Notes under the pieces: generated by a model
What the model was told of the DNA's origin: nothing
Databases searched by the model: none
The model's input: only the letters and a program-made list of their open reading frames with translations
NCBI GenBank assembly: GCA_024244705.1
Contig: JAAEOK010000042.1
Location: 88,764 to 152,763, forward strand
Length of the DNA: 64,000 nucleotides
Origin: Alphaproteobacteria bacterium
GTDB taxonomy: Bacteria > Pseudomonadota > Alphaproteobacteria > JAAEOK01
Direction: 5' to 3'
In this document: one piece after another, positions 4,328-61,163 of the stretch
Numbering within the stretch: position 1 is the first letter of the stretch
Layout: every line of letters begins with the position of its first letter
Made by a program: the position numbers and the translations under genes

Positions 4328-5131
4328 TTAGGCTTCTTCCTCCGCCTCCCGCTCGGCCCGCTTCTTCTCGACGATGCGCGCCATCAGGATCGATATCTCG
4401 TAGAGCACGATGATCGGCAGCGCGAGCCCGACTTGGCTGATGATGTCCGGCGGGGTCAGAATTGCCGCGGCAACGAATGTGCAGACGAGTGCGTACTTAC
4501 GCTTGGCGGCGAGCCCGTCCGCGCTGACGATGCCAACCCGCGCCATCAGCGTCAAGGCGATCGGCAATTGGAAACTCAGACCGAAGGCGAAGATCAGCCG
4601 CATCACCAGCGACAGGTACTCGTTGACCTTGGCTTCGAGTTGGATCGGCAACGAGCCGGGACTTACGTCGGTGGTTTCGAAGCCGAGGAAGAACCGCCAG
4701 GCCAGGGGTATCACAAGGTAATAAAGCAAGGCGCCGCCGGCAAAGAAAAGCACCGGTGTGGCGACCAGGAATGGCAGGAAGGCGCGGCGCTCGTGCCGAT
4801 AGAGGCCGGGCGCGATGAACATCCAAACCTGGCTGGCAATAATCGGAAAGGAAATGAAAATGGCGGCCCAAAAGGCGACCTTGACATAAGTGAAGAAGGC
4901 CTCATGGAGCGCGGTGTAAATCAACCGCCGGTTTTCCTGCCCCTCCATTGCATCCGCCAACGGCTGGACCAGGAATCCGTAAATTTCGTCGGCGAAGTAA
5001 TAGCAGAAGAGAAAGGCGATGAAGATCGCCGCCACCGAGTACATCAGCCGATTGCGCAACTCGATCAAATGATCGAGCAATGGCATCTTCGATTCTTCGA
5101 TGCCCTCGATTTCGGCCAGCTTTTCGCTCAC
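4328..5131 (-). CDS. tatC: twin-arginine translocase subunit TatC
   Basis: Six-TM TatC profile (LIELRNRL..., FLPFLVATPVLFFAGGALLYY). GTG start at 5131. Confidence 0.9.
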   Translation of the reverse strand: MSEKLAEIEGIEESKMPLLDHLIELRNRLMYSVAAIFIAFLFCYYFADEIYGFLVQPLADAMEGQENRRLIYTALHEAFFTYVKVAFWAAIFISFPIIASQVWMFIAPGLYRHERRAFLPFLVATPVLFFAGGALLYYLVIPLAWRFFLGFETTDVSPGSLPIQLEAKVNEYLSLVMRLIFAFGLSFQLPIALTLMARVGIVSADGLAAKRKYALVCTFVAAAILTPPDIISQVGLALPIIVLYEISILMARIVEKKRAEREAEEEA

Positions 5132-5136
5132 TGTCC

Positions 5137-5406
5137 AGAGCCCTTTCTATGAACTCGGAGCCATTCTGACGGAGCGGTTTTGGCCGTCGGGCAGGAGCGA
5201 GGAGCGATGACATGCCGGAGCATATCGAGCGACGAGCGACGCTCACGGCGGGCAAAAGCGCTCGTCCCGTAGGGTTTCCATCCGGCGGCCGACCACGGCG
5301 TCAGCAAGCTTGCCCGATGCTTCGGCATCGCGCTGCTCGAACTTCCTTGCGGACCGGCGCGCCGGATGCGAAACAGAATTGACTCGGGGTTCATAGAAAG
5401 GGCTCT
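5137..5406. mobile_element. 270-bp MITE-like non-autonomous element, copy A (imperfect terminal inverted repeats AGAGCCCTTTCTATGAAC ... GTTCATAGAAAGGGCTCT)
   Basis: About 92% identical to the reverse complement of 29893..30162. Terminal inverted repeats of 17-19 bp seen directly. No transposase ORF. Lies between tatB stop and tatC start. Confidence 0.6.
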
Positions 5407-5851
5407 AGGTTCCGGTCTTGACGTCGGCGCTCGCGACTGAGGCCACGTCCTTCGGTTCGGAATCCGGCTGGTCGGCGTTCGCGACTGAGGCCACGTCCTT
5501 CGGTTCGGAATCCGGCTGGTCGGCGCTCGCTCCTTCGGACGTATTCGAATCACCGTCGGGGATCTTGATCGGCTGCATCGCCTCCTTGATCGACCCGGTC
5601 GGGTCGATCGTGTTCTCGATCTCCTTCTTGATATCGAGCTGGCGCGTGGCATCGAGCTGCTTTTTCATTTCGTCGAGCTCGGTTTCACGGATCATGTCGT
5701 CAAGACCGCGTTGAAAGTCGCGGCCGATCGCGCGCACCTTCCCCGCCCACTGGCCGACCGTACGCAATGCGCGCGGCAAGTCTTTGGGACCGATGATGAT
5801 CACCGCGACCACGATGACCACCAGCATTTCTGTCCAGCCGATATCGAACAT
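5405..5851 (-). CDS. tatB: twin-arginine translocase subunit TatB
   Basis: N-terminal MFDIGWTEMLVVIVVAVIIIGPKDLP TM plus amphipathic helix typical of TatA/B. Long acidic tail. Sits between tatA and tatC. The stop codon TAG spans the junction with the MITE end. Confidence 0.8.
   Translation of the reverse strand: MFDIGWTEMLVVIVVAVIIIGPKDLPRALRTVGQWAGKVRAIGRDFQRGLDDMIRETELDEMKKQLDATRQLDIKKEIENTIDPTGSIKEAMQPIKIPDGDSNTSEGASADQPDSEPKDVASVANADQPDSEPKDVASVASADVKTGT
5433..5528. repeat. perfect-but-one tandem duplication, 2 x 48 bp, inside the tatB 3' coding region (encodes ADQPDSEPKDVASVA[N/S] twice)
   Basis: Direct inspection: gcgactgaggccacgtccttcggttcggaatccggctggtcggcgttc followed by the same 48-mer ending ctc. 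Confidence 0.85.
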
Positions 5852-28134: not shown

Positions 28135-29859
28135 TCAGATATCGGCATAGACGTGCGTTTCCGCGGTCGCCCCCGGATGAGTGACCGCGCCCTTATAGGC
28201 CGGCCCAACCGTCTGGGCATAACGCCACAATGCGCCGGATTGATAATTGTTCGTCCGCGCTGACCAAGCTCGCCGCCGTGCCGCGAATTCGTCCTCCGAC
28301 AAATCGACGTTCAGGGTTCCGGCTTCCGCATCGATGTGGATCATGTCGCCGTCCTTGAGCATTCCGATCGGCCCCCCGACCGCCGCCTCGGGCCCGACAT
28401 GGCCGATGCACAGGCCACGTGTGGCGCCGGAAAAGCGGCCATCAGTAATGAGCGCAACCTTCTGTCCCAATCCGCGTCCGATGAGTGCCGAGGTCGTGGC
28501 CAGCATCTCGCGCATGCCCGGTCCGCCTTTCGGCCCTTCATAGCGAACTACCATGACATCGCCGTCTTTGATCTGGTCCGTCAGCACCGCGCTGAAAGCG
28601 TCCTCCTCGCGTTCGAAAACCCGCGCCGGGCCCGAATGCTGCAGCTGAGTCAACCCGGCAATCTTTACGATCGCCCCCTCGGGCGCCAGCGACCCCTTGA
28701 GGCCAACGACCCCGCCGGTCGAAGACAACGGGTTGCTGACGGGCCGAATGACGTCTTGATCGGTCGGAAACACCACCCCCTCAAGGTTCTCGGCGATTGT
28801 CTTGCCGGTCACGGTTAGACAATTGCCGTCGAGATATCCACCATCAAGCAGCGTCTTCATCAAGACCGGCACTCCGCCGACCTCGTACATGTCCTTGGCA
28901 ACGTACCGCCCGCCGGGCACGAGGTCTGCAATATAGGGGGTCTTGCGAAAGATCTCGCAAACGTGCTCAAGGTCGAATTCGATGCCGGCCTCGTTCGCGA
29001 TAGCCGGAAGATGAAGCCCAGCATTCGTCGAACCGCCGGACGCAGCGACGATAACCGCCGCGTTCTCGAGCGCCTCTCTGGTGACGATGTCGCGCGGCCG
29101 GACCCCGCTGGCGAGCAGAGCCATGACTGCTTCGCCCGACGCCTCGGCGTATTGGTCACGACTCTCGTAGGGAGCGGGCGCTCCCGCCGAGCCCGGCAGC
29201 GCGAGGCCGATGGCTTCGGAAACACAGGCCATCGTATTGGCGGTGAATTGGCCGCCGCACGATCCCGCCGACGGGCACGCCACCGCTTCGAGTTCATGGA
29301 GCTCGTCATCGCTGACCTTGCCTGCCGCATGGCCGCCCACGGCCTCGAAGACATTGATCACGGTCACGTCCTTGCCCTTGAACTGGCCGGGCAGGATCGA
29401 GCCGCCATACATGAAGACCGAGGGCACGTTCAGCCGTACCATCACCATCATCAGCCCGGGCAGCGACTTGTCGCAGCCAGCGAGGCCGACCAGCGCGTCG
29501 TAGCAATGACCGCGCATCGTGAGCTCGGTCGAATCGGCGATGACCTCTCGCGACACCAGCGATGATTTCATGCCTTCATGACCCATGGCGATGCCGTCGG
29601 TGACGGTGATGGTGGTAAATTCTCTCGGCGTTCCGCCGGCGCGGTCGACCCCGCGTTTCACGGCCTGCGCCTGGCGCGCCAGCGCGATGTTGCACGGCGC
29701 CGCTTCGTTCCACGTCGTGACCACGCCGACCAAGGGCTGGTAGATCTCCGCTTCCTTGAGTCCCATGGCATAAAGGTACGAGCGATGCGGCGCGCGCTCC
29801 GGCCCGACCGTGGTATGGCGGCTGGGTAAATTCGATTTGTCGTACCGGGTTTCACTCAT
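28135..29859 (-). CDS. ilvD: dihydroxy-acid dehydratase
   Basis: IlvD/EDD family motifs ([29 protein letters not shown]). 574 aa. Confidence 0.9.
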
Positions 29860-29892
29860 GGCAACATGTCCTCGGCATTGGGTTCCGGATAC

Positions 29893-30162
29893 AGAGCCCT
29901 TTCTATGAACTCCGAGTCAATTCTGTTTCGCATGTGGCGCGCCGGTCCACAAGGAAGCACGCGCAGCGCGATGCAGAAGCATCGGGCAAGCTTGCTGACG
30001 CCGTGGTCGGCGGCCAGATGGAAACCCTACGGGACGGGCGCTTTTGGCCGCCGAGGGTGTCGCTCGTCGCTCGATATGCTTCGGCATGTCGTCGCTCCTC
30101 GCTCCCGCCCGACAGCCAAAACCGCTCCGTCAGAATCGCTCTGAATTCATAGAAAGGGCTCT
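29893..30162. mobile_element. 270-bp MITE-like element, copy B (inverted relative to copy A). Located 33 bp upstream of the ilvD start codon.
   Basis: About 92% identity to the reverse complement of 5137..5406. Same terminal inverted repeats. Confidence 0.6.
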
Positions 30163-30260
30163 GGCGGCAAGATAGCGATGGCGACCCGCCGGTGCCAGCG
30201 CAATTCGGCCCTGAATCATTTTCCTGTCGATCGGAGGGCGGTCGGCATTCGATTGGCGAT

Positions 30261-31079
30261 CTAAGGTACCGGCAAATCCCGCAGGAACTTGTCGGTGTCC
30301 GCGTCGGCCGGAAACATGGTCTCGGTCCGCAGTTCCTGAAGCGTGACATCGTTTGGCGTGCCAAAGGTGGAGATCAAGGTGAAAAACCGGAGCACATTGC
30401 CATTCTTCTCTATATCGATCGCGATCATCGGATCGGTTTCCGCATCCGGCTCGAAGGCCTGCCACTGCGCCGGCACCCCGGGATAGCTCAACAGCTCCCC
30501 GATGAGCCGCACGGCCTCGGCGTCGTTTCCCGCTGCCGCCGTCTCGCGTTGCAGCCGTACTATGATCCCGGCGGCGACAGTCTCCCAATTCACGATCGCG
30601 GGACGGAGTCCGTTCGGGTCAAAAAAGGTCTTGAGCAGATTCGGCCGTGTCCCGTCCGCCGCCGCCAGCGGCATATCGAGGAATCCGATCAACCGTTGAA
30701 TGGCGCCGTTCGCCATGATCAGGTTCCACAGCCGGTCGATAACGACGGCCGGATAGGGCTCGTGATTGTCGAGCAAAAAACGGAGCGCCCTGGCGACCGG
30801 GGCCATCTCCGGCACCGACAGGTCGCGCGCCGGAAACGCCTCCGCATAGCCCGCCGCATTCAACAGCGTATTGCAATGGCGCAACGGCACATCCAGCACC
30901 GCGGCAAGATGCACCACCATGTCGCGGCTCGGCTTTGACCGCCCGGTTTCGATGAAGCTGAGATGACGCGCGGAGATATCGGCTTCGGTCGCGAGACGGA
31001 GCTGGCTCAGGCCGCGACGCCGTCGCCAATAGCGAAGTTGGCTGCCGAAGGTCGAAATAGACGGGGCGGCCATAGTCAT
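30261..31079 (-). CDS. XRE-family HTH transcriptional regulator with MmyB-like C-terminal ligand-binding domain
   Basis: N-terminal HTH (LRYWRRRRGLSQLRLATEADISARHLSFIETGR) and MmyB-like C-terminal region. Divergent from the downstream membrane-protein gene. Confidence 0.7.
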   Translation of the reverse strand: MTMAAPSISTFGSQLRYWRRRRGLSQLRLATEADISARHLSFIETGRSKPSRDMVVHLAAVLDVPLRHCNTLLNAAGYAEAFPARDLSVPEMAPVARALRFLLDNHEPYPAVVIDRLWNLIMANGAIQRLIGFLDMPLAAADGTRPNLLKTFFDPNGLRPAIVNWETVAAGIIVRLQRETAAAGNDAEAVRLIGELLSYPGVPAQWQAFEPDAETDPMIAIDIEKNGNVLRFFTLISTFGTPNDVTLQELRTETMFPADADTDKFLRDLPVP

Positions 31080-34549: not shown

Positions 34550-35335
34550 TCAGGGTCGCGCGCCGGCCGCCTCGAGCAGGGCCGCGATCGTCGTATAGCC
34601 GCGTTGACGGGCCAGGCTGAGCGGCCGTGTCCCGCGCCCGTCGGCGAGGTCGATATCGGCGCCGGCCTCGATCAACGATCGAACGATCGCGATATGATTC
34701 GGCCCGCCGTCGCCAAGAACGATTGCCTCGATCAAGGCCGTCCAAGCAAGATTGTTGACGTGGTCGAGAGGTGCGCCGCCATCGATGAGGGCCTGCACGA
34801 CATCGACATGGCCGAGGTGCGATGCGGCGATCAATGCCGTGCCCTGGTAAGGGCTGGTGACAAGTCCGGTATCGGCCCCCGAGGCGATGGCGAGATTGAC
34901 CATGTCGATATCGTCGATGACCGCGGCGATGGTGAGCACATCGTATTGATCCCCATCGAGGGCATTGATATCGGCGCCGGCTGCGATCAGCGCCTGGGCG
35001 GCACCGAGATCCCGTTGATAGCCGGCGATCATCAACGGTGTTCGGCCATGCCCATCGCGCACGTCAACACCGTCTCCCGCGGACACCAAACGCTGGATCT
35101 CGCTGATATCGCCGGCTATCGCGGCCTTGTGGAGGCCGTCATAGGCCGAGACTTCATGCGATGACGGTGCAGTCTGAATTTGTTGATACCCGGAAAACGG
35201 CTCGATCACGGTCGAGCCTACCATTTGCCCGAAGTAAGGCGAAGCCAGGACCTCTCCACACAAGGAGCAGGCGACAACGGTTGCGGCGAACAAGCCCGAT
35301 ATTCGGTCGAGTCGATTGTTGGATGTCCACCTCAT
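34550..35335 (-). CDS. ankyrin-repeat protein, probable lipoprotein/periplasmic
   Basis: Lipobox-like TVVAC after a signal sequence. At least 5 ankyrin repeats (GRTPLMIAGYQRDLGAAQALIAAGADINALD etc.). Confidence 0.75.
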   Translation of the reverse strand: MRWTSNNRLDRISGLFAATVVACSLCGEVLASPYFGQMVGSTVIEPFSGYQQIQTAPSSHEVSAYDGLHKAAIAGDISEIQRLVSAGDGVDVRDGHGRTPLMIAGYQRDLGAAQALIAAGADINALDGDQYDVLTIAAVIDDIDMVNLAIASGADTGLVTSPYQGTALIAASHLGHVDVVQALIDGGAPLDHVNNLAWTALIEAIVLGDGGPNHIAIVRSLIEAGADIDLADGRGTRPLSLARQRGYTTIAALLEAAGARP

Positions 35336-44367: not shown

Positions 44368-45339
44368 TCAATTCGAGACATCGTAAGCCTCGACTGCGTC
44401 GGTCAGCGAAATCACCGTCCGAGCGCCGGCCTCCTCGCCCCCGCCGACAACATACCACCGGCTGCCGACGATGGCCGAGGTCAGGCCGTGCCGGGGAGTC
44501 GGCATATCCGCCTGGGTCGACCATGTGTCGGTCTCGGGGTCGTAGACCTCATGCGCGGCAAAGGTCCATCCGGGCGAGAACGCCTCACCGCCGGTGACGT
44601 GAAGCCGACCGTCCAAAGCCCCGGCCGCAAGCCCGCCTCGCGGCGTCGGCATGTCCGCCGCCCCACGCCATCGATCCGTCACCGGGTCGTAGATTTCGAG
44701 TGTTGACCGGTTGCCGGCGCCAAATCCGCGGCCACCGACGACATAGAGTTCGCCGCCGAGGACCGCCGCGCTCAGGTGCTCGCGCGCGGTTGGAAGCGGA
44801 GCTCGCGACGTATCCCAGATTCCCGTCTGCGGATCGAAAACCTGCATTTTCCGATGCTCGGGCCCGACGCCACCGACCACGAACAGCTTGCCATCCAGCG
44901 CCGCCATGGCGTGGGCGGCTCGGGGCAGCGGCATCGGCGGTTCTTCGCGCCAACGCCTGGTCTGGGGGTCATAGGAGAACATCGCCGTTCGATCGGGATC
45001 GAAAGCAATGCTGTCGTAGCCGCCGGTGACGTAAATCCTGCCGGCCAATCCGGCCATGCCGAGATGATGCAGGGTTTCGGGCATCGCCGGCAGCTCTTCC
45101 CAAGATTCCGACCGAGGATCGAAGGCCTCGAAAGTCGCCGTGGTGCCGAACAGGGTCAGACCGCCGCCGACATAGATCCGGTCACCCACGACCGCCGCCG
45201 CGATTTCCGACTGGGCGGTCGACATTTGCGGCGCGGTGGCCCATTCGCCCGCAGCCGCCGATCCCACGGCCGCGGCAAATACGAATTGGCAGAGCACACC
45301 GGCACGAAACAAAGACATGCCCGGATCATAGTTCGCCAT
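44368..45339 (-). CDS. Kelch-repeat (galactose-oxidase-like beta-propeller) protein, secreted
   Basis: Signal peptide. About 6 Kelch-like blades (repeated GG...YV.GG, W...P.P.PR motifs). Confidence 0.7.
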   Translation of the reverse strand: MANYDPGMSLFRAGVLCQFVFAAAVGSAAAGEWATAPQMSTAQSEIAAAVVGDRIYVGGGLTLFGTTATFEAFDPRSESWEELPAMPETLHHLGMAGLAGRIYVTGGYDSIAFDPDRTAMFSYDPQTRRWREEPPMPLPRAAHAMAALDGKLFVVGGVGPEHRKMQVFDPQTGIWDTSRAPLPTAREHLSAAVLGGELYVVGGRGFGAGNRSTLEIYDPVTDRWRGAADMPTPRGGLAAGALDGRLHVTGGEAFSPGWTFAAHEVYDPETDTWSTQADMPTPRHGLTSAIVGSRWYVVGGGEEAGARTVISLTDAVEAYDVSN

Positions 45340-45494
45340 GTCGCGATTGTCGCGATCGGCGTGACGGAGAGTCCCGTTCGGCAATCGCAATCGGCAGCCA
45401 CCACCGGGCCCGACGGTGTTGCCAACGCAGCCGCCGCCCTGCTATAAGGCCGCGCCGTCAACGGCCGTATTGCGGACGGTCGATTTCGACCTGA

Positions 45495-60274: not shown

Positions 60275-61033
60275 ATGCAAAAACCGAGCTATCCGGAGCA
60301 GATCACGATCGGCGGTCGCGCCTATCGCGTCGATAGGGTTCTCCACGACGATTTTTTCTCGATCAACGTGCTTTATGTGGAGCCAGGTGGCGGCCGCCAG
60401 ATTCTCAAGCTCAGCGACTTCCGCATGATCGGCGGCTTCCTCTTCCGTCCGATGGCGGCGTGGATGTCGCGCCGGGAATACCGTATCTACGGAAAGCTTG
60501 AAGGCGTTGTCGGGGTGCCCACTCTCGGACCACGATGTGGCGATCGCGGCTATTTCCATGACTTCGTGCCCGGAAAACCGCTCGATCGGCTGGCGCCGGA
60601 CGAAACCGTGCCCGACGATTTCTTCGACCGCCTGGTGGACACCTACAAGGAAATGCACTTGCGCGGAATCGCCCATGTCGATTCGAACAAGCGCAGTAAT
60701 CTAATCCTCGGCAACGACGGCCGCCCTTATGTCATCGACTTCCAGGTCGCGCTCGACCGCGGCAACGGGCGCACATTGCGCCGCCGCCGCGAATCTTTGT
60801 TTTTGGCCCTGGCCCGATCGGACATCTACCATGTCTACAAACTCAAGGCTCGTTTGCGCCCCGACCTGATGCGGCCGGAGGAATGGGCCCTTGCCGATCG
60901 GCCGCGCCAAAACCGAATCTACGACCGGATTTTCGGCGGCCCCTACCGCACGCTGAAACGCATGATCTACCGCTCGGGCAGCACCCAGCCACGATGGCGG
61001 CGCAGCGGCAACGGTCGGGATACGGACGCCTAG
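60275..61033 (+). CDS. protein-kinase-like fold protein (Kdo/LPS-kinase or RIO-like)
   Basis: Catalytic-loop-like HVDSNKRSNLIL and DFQVA (DFG-equivalent). Confidence 0.5.
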   Translation: MQKPSYPEQITIGGRAYRVDRVLHDDFFSINVLYVEPGGGRQILKLSDFRMIGGFLFRPMAAWMSRREYRIYGKLEGVVGVPTLGPRCGDRGYFHDFVPGKPLDRLAPDETVPDDFFDRLVDTYKEMHLRGIAHVDSNKRSNLILGNDGRPYVIDFQVALDRGNGRTLRRRRESLFLALARSDIYHVYKLKARLRPDLMRPEEWALADRPRQNRIYDRIFGGPYRTLKRMIYRSGSTQPRWRRSGNGRDTDA

Positions 61034-61163
61034 GGCGTGATCGGCTCACATCGAAACGAAGTGAGCCGTGAATCACGCCCCAACATATTGAGTTAGAGCA
61101 AGATTCACGTTTCAGGTCGATTCGATCTGAAACGATCTTGCTCTTGGCACGGGATTCGGTGCC
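61034..61163. terminator. cluster of three consecutive strong stem-loops in the convergent intergenic region (61034..61079, 61095..61144, 61146..61163). Probable bidirectional terminator.
   Basis: Inverted repeats seen directly: GGCGTGATCGGCTCAC/GTGAGCCG..ATCACGCC, AGAGCAAGAT..CGTTTCAG/CTGAAACG..ATCTTGCTCT, GGCAC/GTGCC. Confidence 0.4.

Follow-up and report, generated by a model that had tools for sequence, protein, structure and literature searches.

A family of foldback repeats in Alphaproteobacteria, probably TA-duplicating miniature inverted-repeat elements, with two copies next to tatC and ilvD

Among the bacterial miniature transposable elements with inverted repeats (MITEs) that are flanked by TA, the best-studied is the Correia element of Neisseria, whose hairpins are substrates of RNase III (PMC10969869), and elements of the IS630 family insert into the dinucleotide TA and duplicate it (PMC2170065). 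REPINs are extragenic hairpins which frequently carry compensatory changes in their arms, apparently reside in a lineage for a long time and have no transposase of their own (PMC3116915), and rhizobial genomes contain dozens of annotated intergenic repeats with a conserved structure, among them the RIMEs, the Sm-repeats and the A/B/C palindromes (PMC2573895). The present work deals with a pair of inverted repeats of 272 bp, copy A and copy B, which are found in a 64,000-nt stretch of DNA (positions 88,764 to 152,763 of contig JAAEOK010000042.1, assembly GCA_024244705.1; in the following, the window). The window belongs to an NCBI metagenome-assembled genome (MAG) named 'Alphaproteobacteria bacterium', and the nearest named relatives of its host are Rhodospirillales. 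An earlier note on the window had taken the two repeats for a non-autonomous miniature inverted-repeat element, and this view is supported here by empty sites in relatives, the number of copies, the absence of a coding signal and of a matching Rfam family, and the duplication of TA. The repeats probably belong to a family of non-autonomous foldback MITEs that is widespread in Alphaproteobacteria; its full-length members measure 272-277 bp and duplicate TA upon insertion.

The repeat pair, its relatives and the duplicated TA

A repeat search placed the pair at 5135-5406 and 29893-30164 (272 nt, 92% complementary), and a base-by-base comparison revealed 22 substitutions between the copies (14 transitions and 8 transversions) and no indels, which confirms the earlier description of two inverted copies with about 92% identity; blastn within the window aligns them with E = 2e-92. 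The 17-mer AGAGCCCTTTCTATGAA occurs four times in the window, namely at both ends of both copies, where 0.04 occurrences are expected by chance, and all 37 terminal positions are identical in A and B, whereas 22 of the 235 interior positions differ (Fisher p = 0.035). Terminal inverted repeats (TIRs) of 17-19 bp had been described before; these are real and perfect over 18-19 nt, but the pairing is longer, about 31 bp, with an imperfect continuation to about 31-33 nt. Aligned to its reverse complement, the element as a whole shows 61% identity, and no other comparable foldback was found in the 64-kb window. According to the alignment of the family, the best boundaries are 5136-5407 for copy A and 29892-30163 for copy B, flanking dinucleotides included, with GAGC...GCTC cores at 5138-5405 and 29894-30161. 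Copy A is in family orientation on the - strand and reads TA-GAGCCC...GGGCTC-TG on that strand; copy B is in family orientation on the + strand, antisense to ilvD, and reads CA-GAGCCC...GGGCTC-TG.

Both window copies are insertions: syntenic relatives have neither of them at the corresponding site. Within the tatABC cluster, copy A occupies the tatB-tatC spacer. In metagenomic relatives with TatC proteins of 85-86% identity, whose collinearity with the window extends along 15 kb, tatB and tatC lack the element and either overlap by 4 bp (L073-L077) or are separated by a 33-bp spacer (L071, L072). Copy B lies between the gene of an MmyB-like regulator and ilvD, 5 nt (GCCGC) downstream of the promoter-like motif CTGGCA-N17-CTATCTT and 16-17 nt upstream of the ribosome-binding motif CCGAGGA. 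In relatives with an IlvD identity of 85-86%, CTATCTT and CCGAGGA are 21-23 nt apart, which the window equals once the element is removed; if the TG dinucleotide is counted as element, the site closes to the exact 21-nt spacing of the two closest relatives. The two intergenic contexts are unrelated, as previously stated. The host genes of both copies lie on the - strand, and the copies point in opposite directions with respect to them, copy A being family-sense in tat and copy B antisense in ilvD. The earlier note had argued that a lack of empty sites in relatives would weaken the interpretation as a mobile element; such sites were found at four loci, the two in the window and two in Phyllobacterium.

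Exact 17-mer scans yielded 31 matches in 185,579 genomes and 39 matches in metagenome contigs, all of which are single chance hits without further similarity, and the 10 hits of a junction-motif scan of viral contigs are also due to chance. Likewise, blastn of the window copy against plasmids and against phages returned nothing, because the window variant is too diverged and is bridged to other members only via the variants of the metagenome contig L083, of Phyllobacterium and of Aminobacter. Exact-word searches thus miss the family, although relatives sit in hundreds of rhizobial plasmids, since the terminal repeats co-vary between subfamilies. An exhaustive HMMER protein search with the open frame of the element, however, led to a spurious open reading frame (ORF) of 84 amino acids (P0242; E = 2.6e-4, pairwise 2e-12), whose 550-bp metagenome contig, L083, carries an element of 273-283 bp with a homologous interior and different terminal repeats. 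With the L083 copy as query, three plasmids of Phyllobacterium sp. 628 were found, which carry four copies altogether; the second copy on plasmid p_3, which turned up later, bears an insert and measures 359 bp in total. The Phyllobacterium copies in turn identified further members in P. zundukense and Aminobacter niigataensis. The ends of the Aminobacter variant resemble those of the window, and this variant matched 66 Rhizobium and 3 Sinorhizobium plasmid records; for three Rhizobium/Sinorhizobium representatives of 273 bp, the profile match runs from end to end (E 1e-12 to 5e-20). Using the copy of S. fredii as query, 299 places in 210 plasmid records were matched, 115 of them at full length, and these records belong to Rhizobium (149), Sinorhizobium (60) and Agrobacterium (1); replicons of S. 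meliloti gave partial matches only (query positions 3-106, 76-86%). The family is multi-copy in the window (2), on the Phyllobacterium sp. 628 plasmids (4) and in the plasmid records, and many copies exist beyond the two window loci, chiefly on rhizobial plasmids.

Derivatives of the element also exist. The insert of the p_3 copy (L108, 37915-37996) is an extra module of ~82 bp with two small hairpins, which is inserted exactly at the central junction and suggests that hairpin modules can be added there, and a centre-deleted copy (L099) has a length of 147 bp. The window copies are diverged and probably old copies of the alphaproteobacterial family, their degenerate tips being consistent with 8% divergence; the window host, which is not a rhizobium, would thus carry two old representatives of a diverged subfamily. 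Two side observations concern the sequences retrieved by the searches. A 767-aa protein (P0241), which matched the element frame weakly 11 times, was judged spurious as a sum of weak matches; it is encoded on an ENA contig of 978,866 bp and consists of ~12 tandem units of 63 aa, evidently a translated tandem DNA repeat of 189 bp. In L083, a second, unrelated foldback of ~94 bp (positions 431-524, CCCGAGCGATCCCGGATTGTTGAT...ATCAACAATCCGGGATCGCTCGGG) seemingly interrupts the 5' part of a YqgE/AlgH-like ORF.

The target site could be read at a coding junction of P. zundukense A18/3m (L097), where the element fills a gap of 272 bp in an ABC-transporter operon, with the permease gene on one side and the ATPase gene on the other, and at least 14 related ABC-transporter operons lack the element. 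On the coding strand, the empty sites (L100, L101) have the sequence TCA TGATG ATC, in which the TGA stop overlaps the ATG start, and the filled site reads TCA TA-GAGCC...GGCTC-TA ATG GTC. Removal of the element and one TA yields TCA TAATG GTC, which has the length of the empty site and an overlapping stop and start codon, whereas removal of both TAs leads to loss of the stop. Since only the removal of the element together with one TA restores both stop and length, TA is duplicated on insertion at this junction. In the characterised set of 13 copies, comprising ten tabulated copies and the three Rhizobium/Sinorhizobium representatives, TA is found on both sides of 11 copies (8/10 and 3/3, respectively), and 10 copies lie in the context C-TA...TA-G. 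IS630 is said to prefer TA within CTAG, as can be taken from the title of an article by Tenzen and Ohtsubo from 1991. A duplication of the 4-bp CTAG or of a longer sequence was ruled out by the flanks TTAG...CTAA in L083, which are inverted and not direct, and T-TA...TA-T in L097. The absence of a clear target-site duplication, as reported in the earlier note, therefore applies to the window copies alone, whose degenerate flanks TA/TG and CA/TG obscured it, but not to the family. If the element and one TA are removed from copy A by the same logic, ACC TAG ACA GTG remains at tatB-tatC, i.e. the TAG stop common to L071, followed by three nucleotides and the GTG start; with their degenerate tips, the junctions of the window copies are not resolvable to the nucleotide.

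The element is non-coding, and the earlier statement that neither copy encodes a transposase holds. In all six frames, the numbers of synonymous and nonsynonymous changes between copies A and B look neutral and show no synonymous excess; the 92-aa/174-aa frame, for instance, has 6 synonymous and 16 nonsynonymous changes. None of the translations of the element matched Pfam, no protein homologue of its concatenated six-frame translation was found in a word-indexed collection of 5.8 billion proteins, and the homologous DNA in L083 is read in frames that are shifted relative to the window copies. A coding function was rejected based on the neutral substitutions, the missing Pfam match and the shifted frames. 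No intrinsic terminator or sigma-70 promoter was found within the element, and, judging by the sequence, its ends do not agree with core sites of the attC type (RYYYAAC/GTTRRRY). A structured RNA had been considered as an alternative in the earlier note, and the element indeed folds strongly, yet no Rfam family matches: at gathering thresholds, Rfam 15 matched only two tRNAs in the window, and searches in E-value mode with three subfamily variants produced chance matches to miRNAs and lncRNAs only. For annotation, this means that the element gives rise to spurious ORF calls, such as P0242 and the 56-174-aa ORFs which overlap both window copies, and that it inflates intergenic spacers inside operons.

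A conserved three-helix fold and how the element may spread

The whole element is a conserved three-helix foldback. Full-length members are all 272-277 bp long and have invariant ends, (T)A-GAGC...GCTC-T(A), which are part of an outer stem of ~30 bp. The central ~15 bp of this stem occur in at least five versions, whose arms are always complementary. In the window, the arms of the outer stem span 5136-5168 on the tatC side and 5375-5407 on the tatB side of copy A, and 29892-29924 on the ilvD side and 30131-30163 on the regulator/promoter side of copy B. The subterminal motifs CAGTTCTGTTTC / CCGGCAGAAC, that is CA(G/A)TTCTGTT(T/C)C and CCG(G/T)CA(G/T)AA, are conserved, and two internal hairpins of ~100 nt each meet at the conserved junction GGAAAC-CC-(G/T)A(A/C)GGG-(A/C)CG(G/A)G. 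Between the window and L083, the first internal hairpin is about 70% and the second about 44% identical; the idea that the two hairpins are duplicates of each other was rejected. Folding energies range from -140 to -177 kcal/mol (-172 to -177 kcal/mol for the Rhizobium copies), and compared to shuffled controls the folds have z-scores of -6.5 to -11.3.

Covariation was assessed in an alignment of nine sequences with 88 consensus pairs, using 500 column shuffles and slid partners as controls. Both sides were changed and the pairing was kept in 36 of the 88 pairs, compared to 18.5 +/- 2.6 in the shuffles, none of which reached 36, and 4-14 for slid partners; 94.1% of the cells are paired versus 83.3% in the shuffles. 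The covarying pairs are located in the outer stem (18/30 pairs) and in both internal hairpins. G-U and C-A pairs are about equally frequent, hence no strand preference was found, and this strand symmetry points to a palindrome at the level of DNA rather than to an RNA fold with a preferred strand. In a simulation, the partner copy folded far better than randomly mutated copies; this simulation cannot tell selection on the fold apart from the case in which both copies decayed independently, starting from a master that was more perfect. The covariation between the arms could result from selection on the hairpin or, as we infer, from template-switch correction of quasipalindromes, and the data do not separate the two. 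With at least five variants of the outer stem, the family forms a natural data set for distinguishing between hairpin selection and template-switch correction.

If the element is a TA-duplicating MITE, a trans-acting DDE transposase of the IS630/Tc1-mariner type would most likely cut and paste it into TA, preferably within CTAG. Because TA is rare outside of stop codons in GC-rich genomes, copies would often land at TAG or TAA stops and at tight gene junctions, where the terminal TA-G would rebuild the stop codon after insertion; the flanking genes would stay functionally adjacent, because the insert folds back on itself. In this respect the family is a clean example of a TA-targeting element which, in GC-rich genomes, settles at stop codons and narrow gene junctions and whose own end rebuilds the stop. 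The assignment to the IS630/Tc1 class, which had already been suggested for the mobiliser, is inferred from the target signature alone: the TA duplication and the CTAG-like context fit such a relative, but neither the window nor p_3 revealed a transposase.

Several observations weigh against this interpretation. The window copies do not have clean TA/TA flanks, but TA/TG in the case of copy A and CA/TG in the case of copy B; in copy B, CA...TG forms an inverted symmetry, and TG is found on the same side of both copies, so that the shared TG looks element-borne and not like a duplicated target. The duplication is resolved unambiguously at a single empty site, that of L097, as the site in L096 lies in a variable spacer. 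Moreover, subfamilies differ most in the middle of the terminal repeat and the interior core is conserved, a pattern that is not predicted for a transposase reading the sequence of the terminal repeat. The GC content of 0.52-0.62 is equal to or above that of the flanks, unlike in the AT-rich textbook MITEs. Finally, no transposase, Y1 or recombinase domain was found in about 46 ORFs of the window, the complete 316-kb Phyllobacterium plasmid p_3, which harbours two copies, contains no annotated transposase and no other matching ends, and the ends of an IS5-family element in the vicinity of the Aminobacter copy are unrelated.

It is conceivable, but rather unlikely, that the element moves in the form of a folded single strand, either in a REPIN/RAYT-like manner or as a palindrome-associated derivative of IS200/IS605, and that the hairpin and not the TIR sequence is recognised. 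The compensatory changes in the outer stem and both internal hairpins, which preserve the fold over its whole length, are consistent with this mode, as are the strand-symmetric pairing, the hypervariable and always complementary outer stem and the unclean flanks of the window copies; REPINs, too, show frequent compensatory changes and form hairpins in single-stranded DNA or mRNA (PMC3116915). However, elements with Y1 transposases make no target duplication, whereas a TA duplication is seen at the L097 junction and TA/TA flanks are the rule in the family. The element also exceeds REP doublets in size by far, having 272-277 bp and a three-way junction; the window ORFs that were scanned contain neither a Y1 nor a RAYT domain; and template switching at quasipalindromes could produce covariation without any recognition of a hairpin. 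A related idea, to which we likewise assign a low probability, is that the shape of the element is what is recognised and not its terminal-repeat sequence, or that the fold is selected by the host and permits insertions exactly on stop/start junctions (tatB-tatC, ABC-transporter operons elsewhere) without uncoupling translation. It is based on the finding that only 4-6 terminal bases and the three-way-junction core are invariant, with ~15 bp of the outer stem being free as long as they are complementary. If true, a folded single strand would be mobilised or processed by a structure-specific enzyme that still makes a TA duplication, and shape recognition or a host-selected fold would constitute a mechanistic variant not described for bacterial MITEs.

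Slightly less probable still is the possibility that the element serves in the first place as a structured RNA or cis-regulatory module with a function of its own, such as stabilising an mRNA, offering a site to RNase III or coupling translation; in this case, the host would maintain it and its spread would be secondary. The very stable folds are in line with such a function, and the junction and the subterminal motifs are conserved across genera, with the outer stem covarying. In addition, copies recur in operons and leaders (tatB-tatC, the ilvD leader, and ABC-transporter operons in L096 and L097), and in copy A the tatB stop is located at the 5' base of the stem and the candidate tatC start 5 nt past its 3' base. 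On the other hand, copies are found in both orientations to host transcription, sense in tat and antisense in ilvD, L095, L096 and L097, the pairing has no strand preference, the element matches no Rfam family and is missing in close relatives at the orthologous sites, and centre-deleted and insert-bearing derivatives exist. Copy A would be co-transcribed in the tatABC mRNA and copy B in the ilvD leader, and an effect of the element on mRNA stability or translation may be supposed; an effect on the expression of tat and ilvD is conjecture. If the copies are indeed co-transcribed, mRNA decay or translational coupling could be altered by a 270-nt hairpin with -140 to -177 kcal/mol, which would lie between the tatB and tatC genes in one case and at the 5' end of the ilvD transcript in the other.

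Lastly, an artefact of assembly or binning, for which only the origin of the window from a MAG speaks, or a chance palindrome is refuted, with next to no probability left, by the 22 differences between the copies, the collinearity of the window flanks with independent relatives, the homologues in finished plasmids of cultured strains and the in-window E = 2e-92.

Gene neighbourhood of the two window copies

The gene upstream of copy A, tatB (5405-5851, - strand), encodes a C-terminus, KTGT*, which it shares together with the TAG stop with the relative L071. This stop (5405-5407) is composed of the flanking TA and the first G of the copy A core. Downstream of copy A, tatC (4328-5131, - strand; protein MCP4328091.1) has a GTG at 5131, which is 4 nt away from the element (5132-5135 in between), and an AAAGGG stretch resembling a Shine-Dalgarno sequence is found 9 nt upstream of this GTG in the outer-stem arm on the tatC side. 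The NCBI model of TatC (P0001) starts at an internal ATG at position 5086 and comprises 252 aa; however, relatives, whose gene models begin further upstream, share the conserved extension IEESKMPLL that precedes this ATG. For this reason, the true start of tatC is uncertain, and its distance to the element would be either 4 or 49 nt.

Further observations concern the tatB-tatC region. The 3' end of tatB contains a 48-bp tandem duplication (98% identical; 5423-5518), 15 nt from copy A, which encodes ADQPDSEPKDVASVA(N/S) twice and is missing in L071 and L073; it may have arisen by replication slippage beside the large palindrome. The 33-bp tatB-tatC spacer of the closest relative (L071, 9966-9998; L072, 2114-2146) is itself a palindrome, AGAGCATGGTCC...GGATCATGCTCT, which directly follows the shared ACC TAG and ends like the element family with AGAGC...GCTCT. 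One of its arms agrees with the terminal repeat of the L083 type in 11 of 13 positions, and it occurs only once in the 20.8 kb of L071. This palindrome may be what remains of a family member that sat at the same site and lost its interior, which is possible because centre-deleted copies such as L099 exist, or it may be a coincidence.

Downstream of copy B, ilvD (28135-29859, - strand; protein MCP4328116.1) is preceded by the ribosome-binding motif CCGAGGA at 29869-29875. The promoter-like motif upstream of ilvD (30169-30198, - strand) is kept in the window and three relatives and may function as a promoter, and copy B is presumably located in the 5' leader of ilvD. The MmyB-like regulator (30261-31079, - strand), which consists of an XRE helix-turn-helix and an MLTR_LBD domain, is syntenic with L082, where it is also retained upstream of ilvD. 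Elsewhere in the window, two strong hairpins are present between convergent genes (61032-61144), one of which (61095-61144) has AGAGC...GCTCT ends and is otherwise dissimilar to the family; they are probably terminators. The window additionally encodes an ankyrin-repeat protein (34550-35335, - strand) and a Kelch-repeat protein (44368-45390, - strand), both of which are eukaryote-like and may hint at a host-associated lifestyle of the organism behind the MAG.

Comparison with described bacterial repeats

MITEs are defined as elements of less than 500 bp without a transposase gene (PMC10969869), and the members described here, with 272-277 bp and in one case 359 bp including an insert, fall within this definition. 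They possess TIRs, are flanked by a direct repeat at the level of the family, and occur in multiple copies with presence/absence polymorphism; the AT-richness of element and surrounding intergenic DNA, which is typical but not obligatory for MITEs, is not seen. Like the bacterial MITEs derived from IS630/Tc1 elements, the family is small, non-coding, bounded by TIRs and intergenic in either orientation, and TA is duplicated in a CTAG-like context. Correia elements are often co-transcribed, and a transcript of the present element would likewise form a long hairpin; however, the present element is about twice as long, GC-rich like its hosts and a conserved three-helix foldback over its whole length. 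In contrast to both IS630/Tc1-derived MITEs and Correia elements, the middle of the terminal repeat varies and the interior core is conserved, and no parent insertion sequence was identified.

The family shares with REPINs the extragenic location, the formation of hairpins, compensatory changes in the arms, an apparent long-term residence and the lack of an own transposase. REPINs, however, are simple hairpins of ~70-150 bp with two conserved REPs, do not duplicate their target and are tied to a RAYT gene, whereas the present elements duplicate TA, are bounded by GAGC ends and contain two internal hairpins, and the window ORFs that were scanned include no RAYT. ERIC/IRU sequences are imperfect palindromes in transcribed intergenic regions of operons, which are found in both orientations and as indel size variants (also PMC10969869). 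The family resembles them in being palindromic, in its intergenic position in operons, in both orientations and in its internal size variants; it differs in that there is no sequence relationship, and in that ERIC sequences have ~127 bp and are found in enterics, compared to ~275 bp and Alphaproteobacteria for the family.

With the rhizobial RIMEs and Sm-repeats and the A/B/C palindromes of Sinorhizobium meliloti, the family has in common that it is intergenic, multi-copy, rich in palindromes and conserved in sequence and secondary structure, and that it is abundant in plasmids of Rhizobium and Sinorhizobium. RIMEs were reportedly described by Osteras et al. in 1995, and RIME1 is said to contain two large palindromes. 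RIMEs and Sm-repeats were compared with the family by their description only, and the window host is a Rhodospirillales-like MAG and not a rhizobium. No paper containing the end or core motifs was found in the searchable literature, and the plasmid annotation tables hold no repeat features. Given its abundance in Rhizobium plasmids and the repeats already annotated in rhizobia, the family may nevertheless carry a RIME- or Sm-type name.

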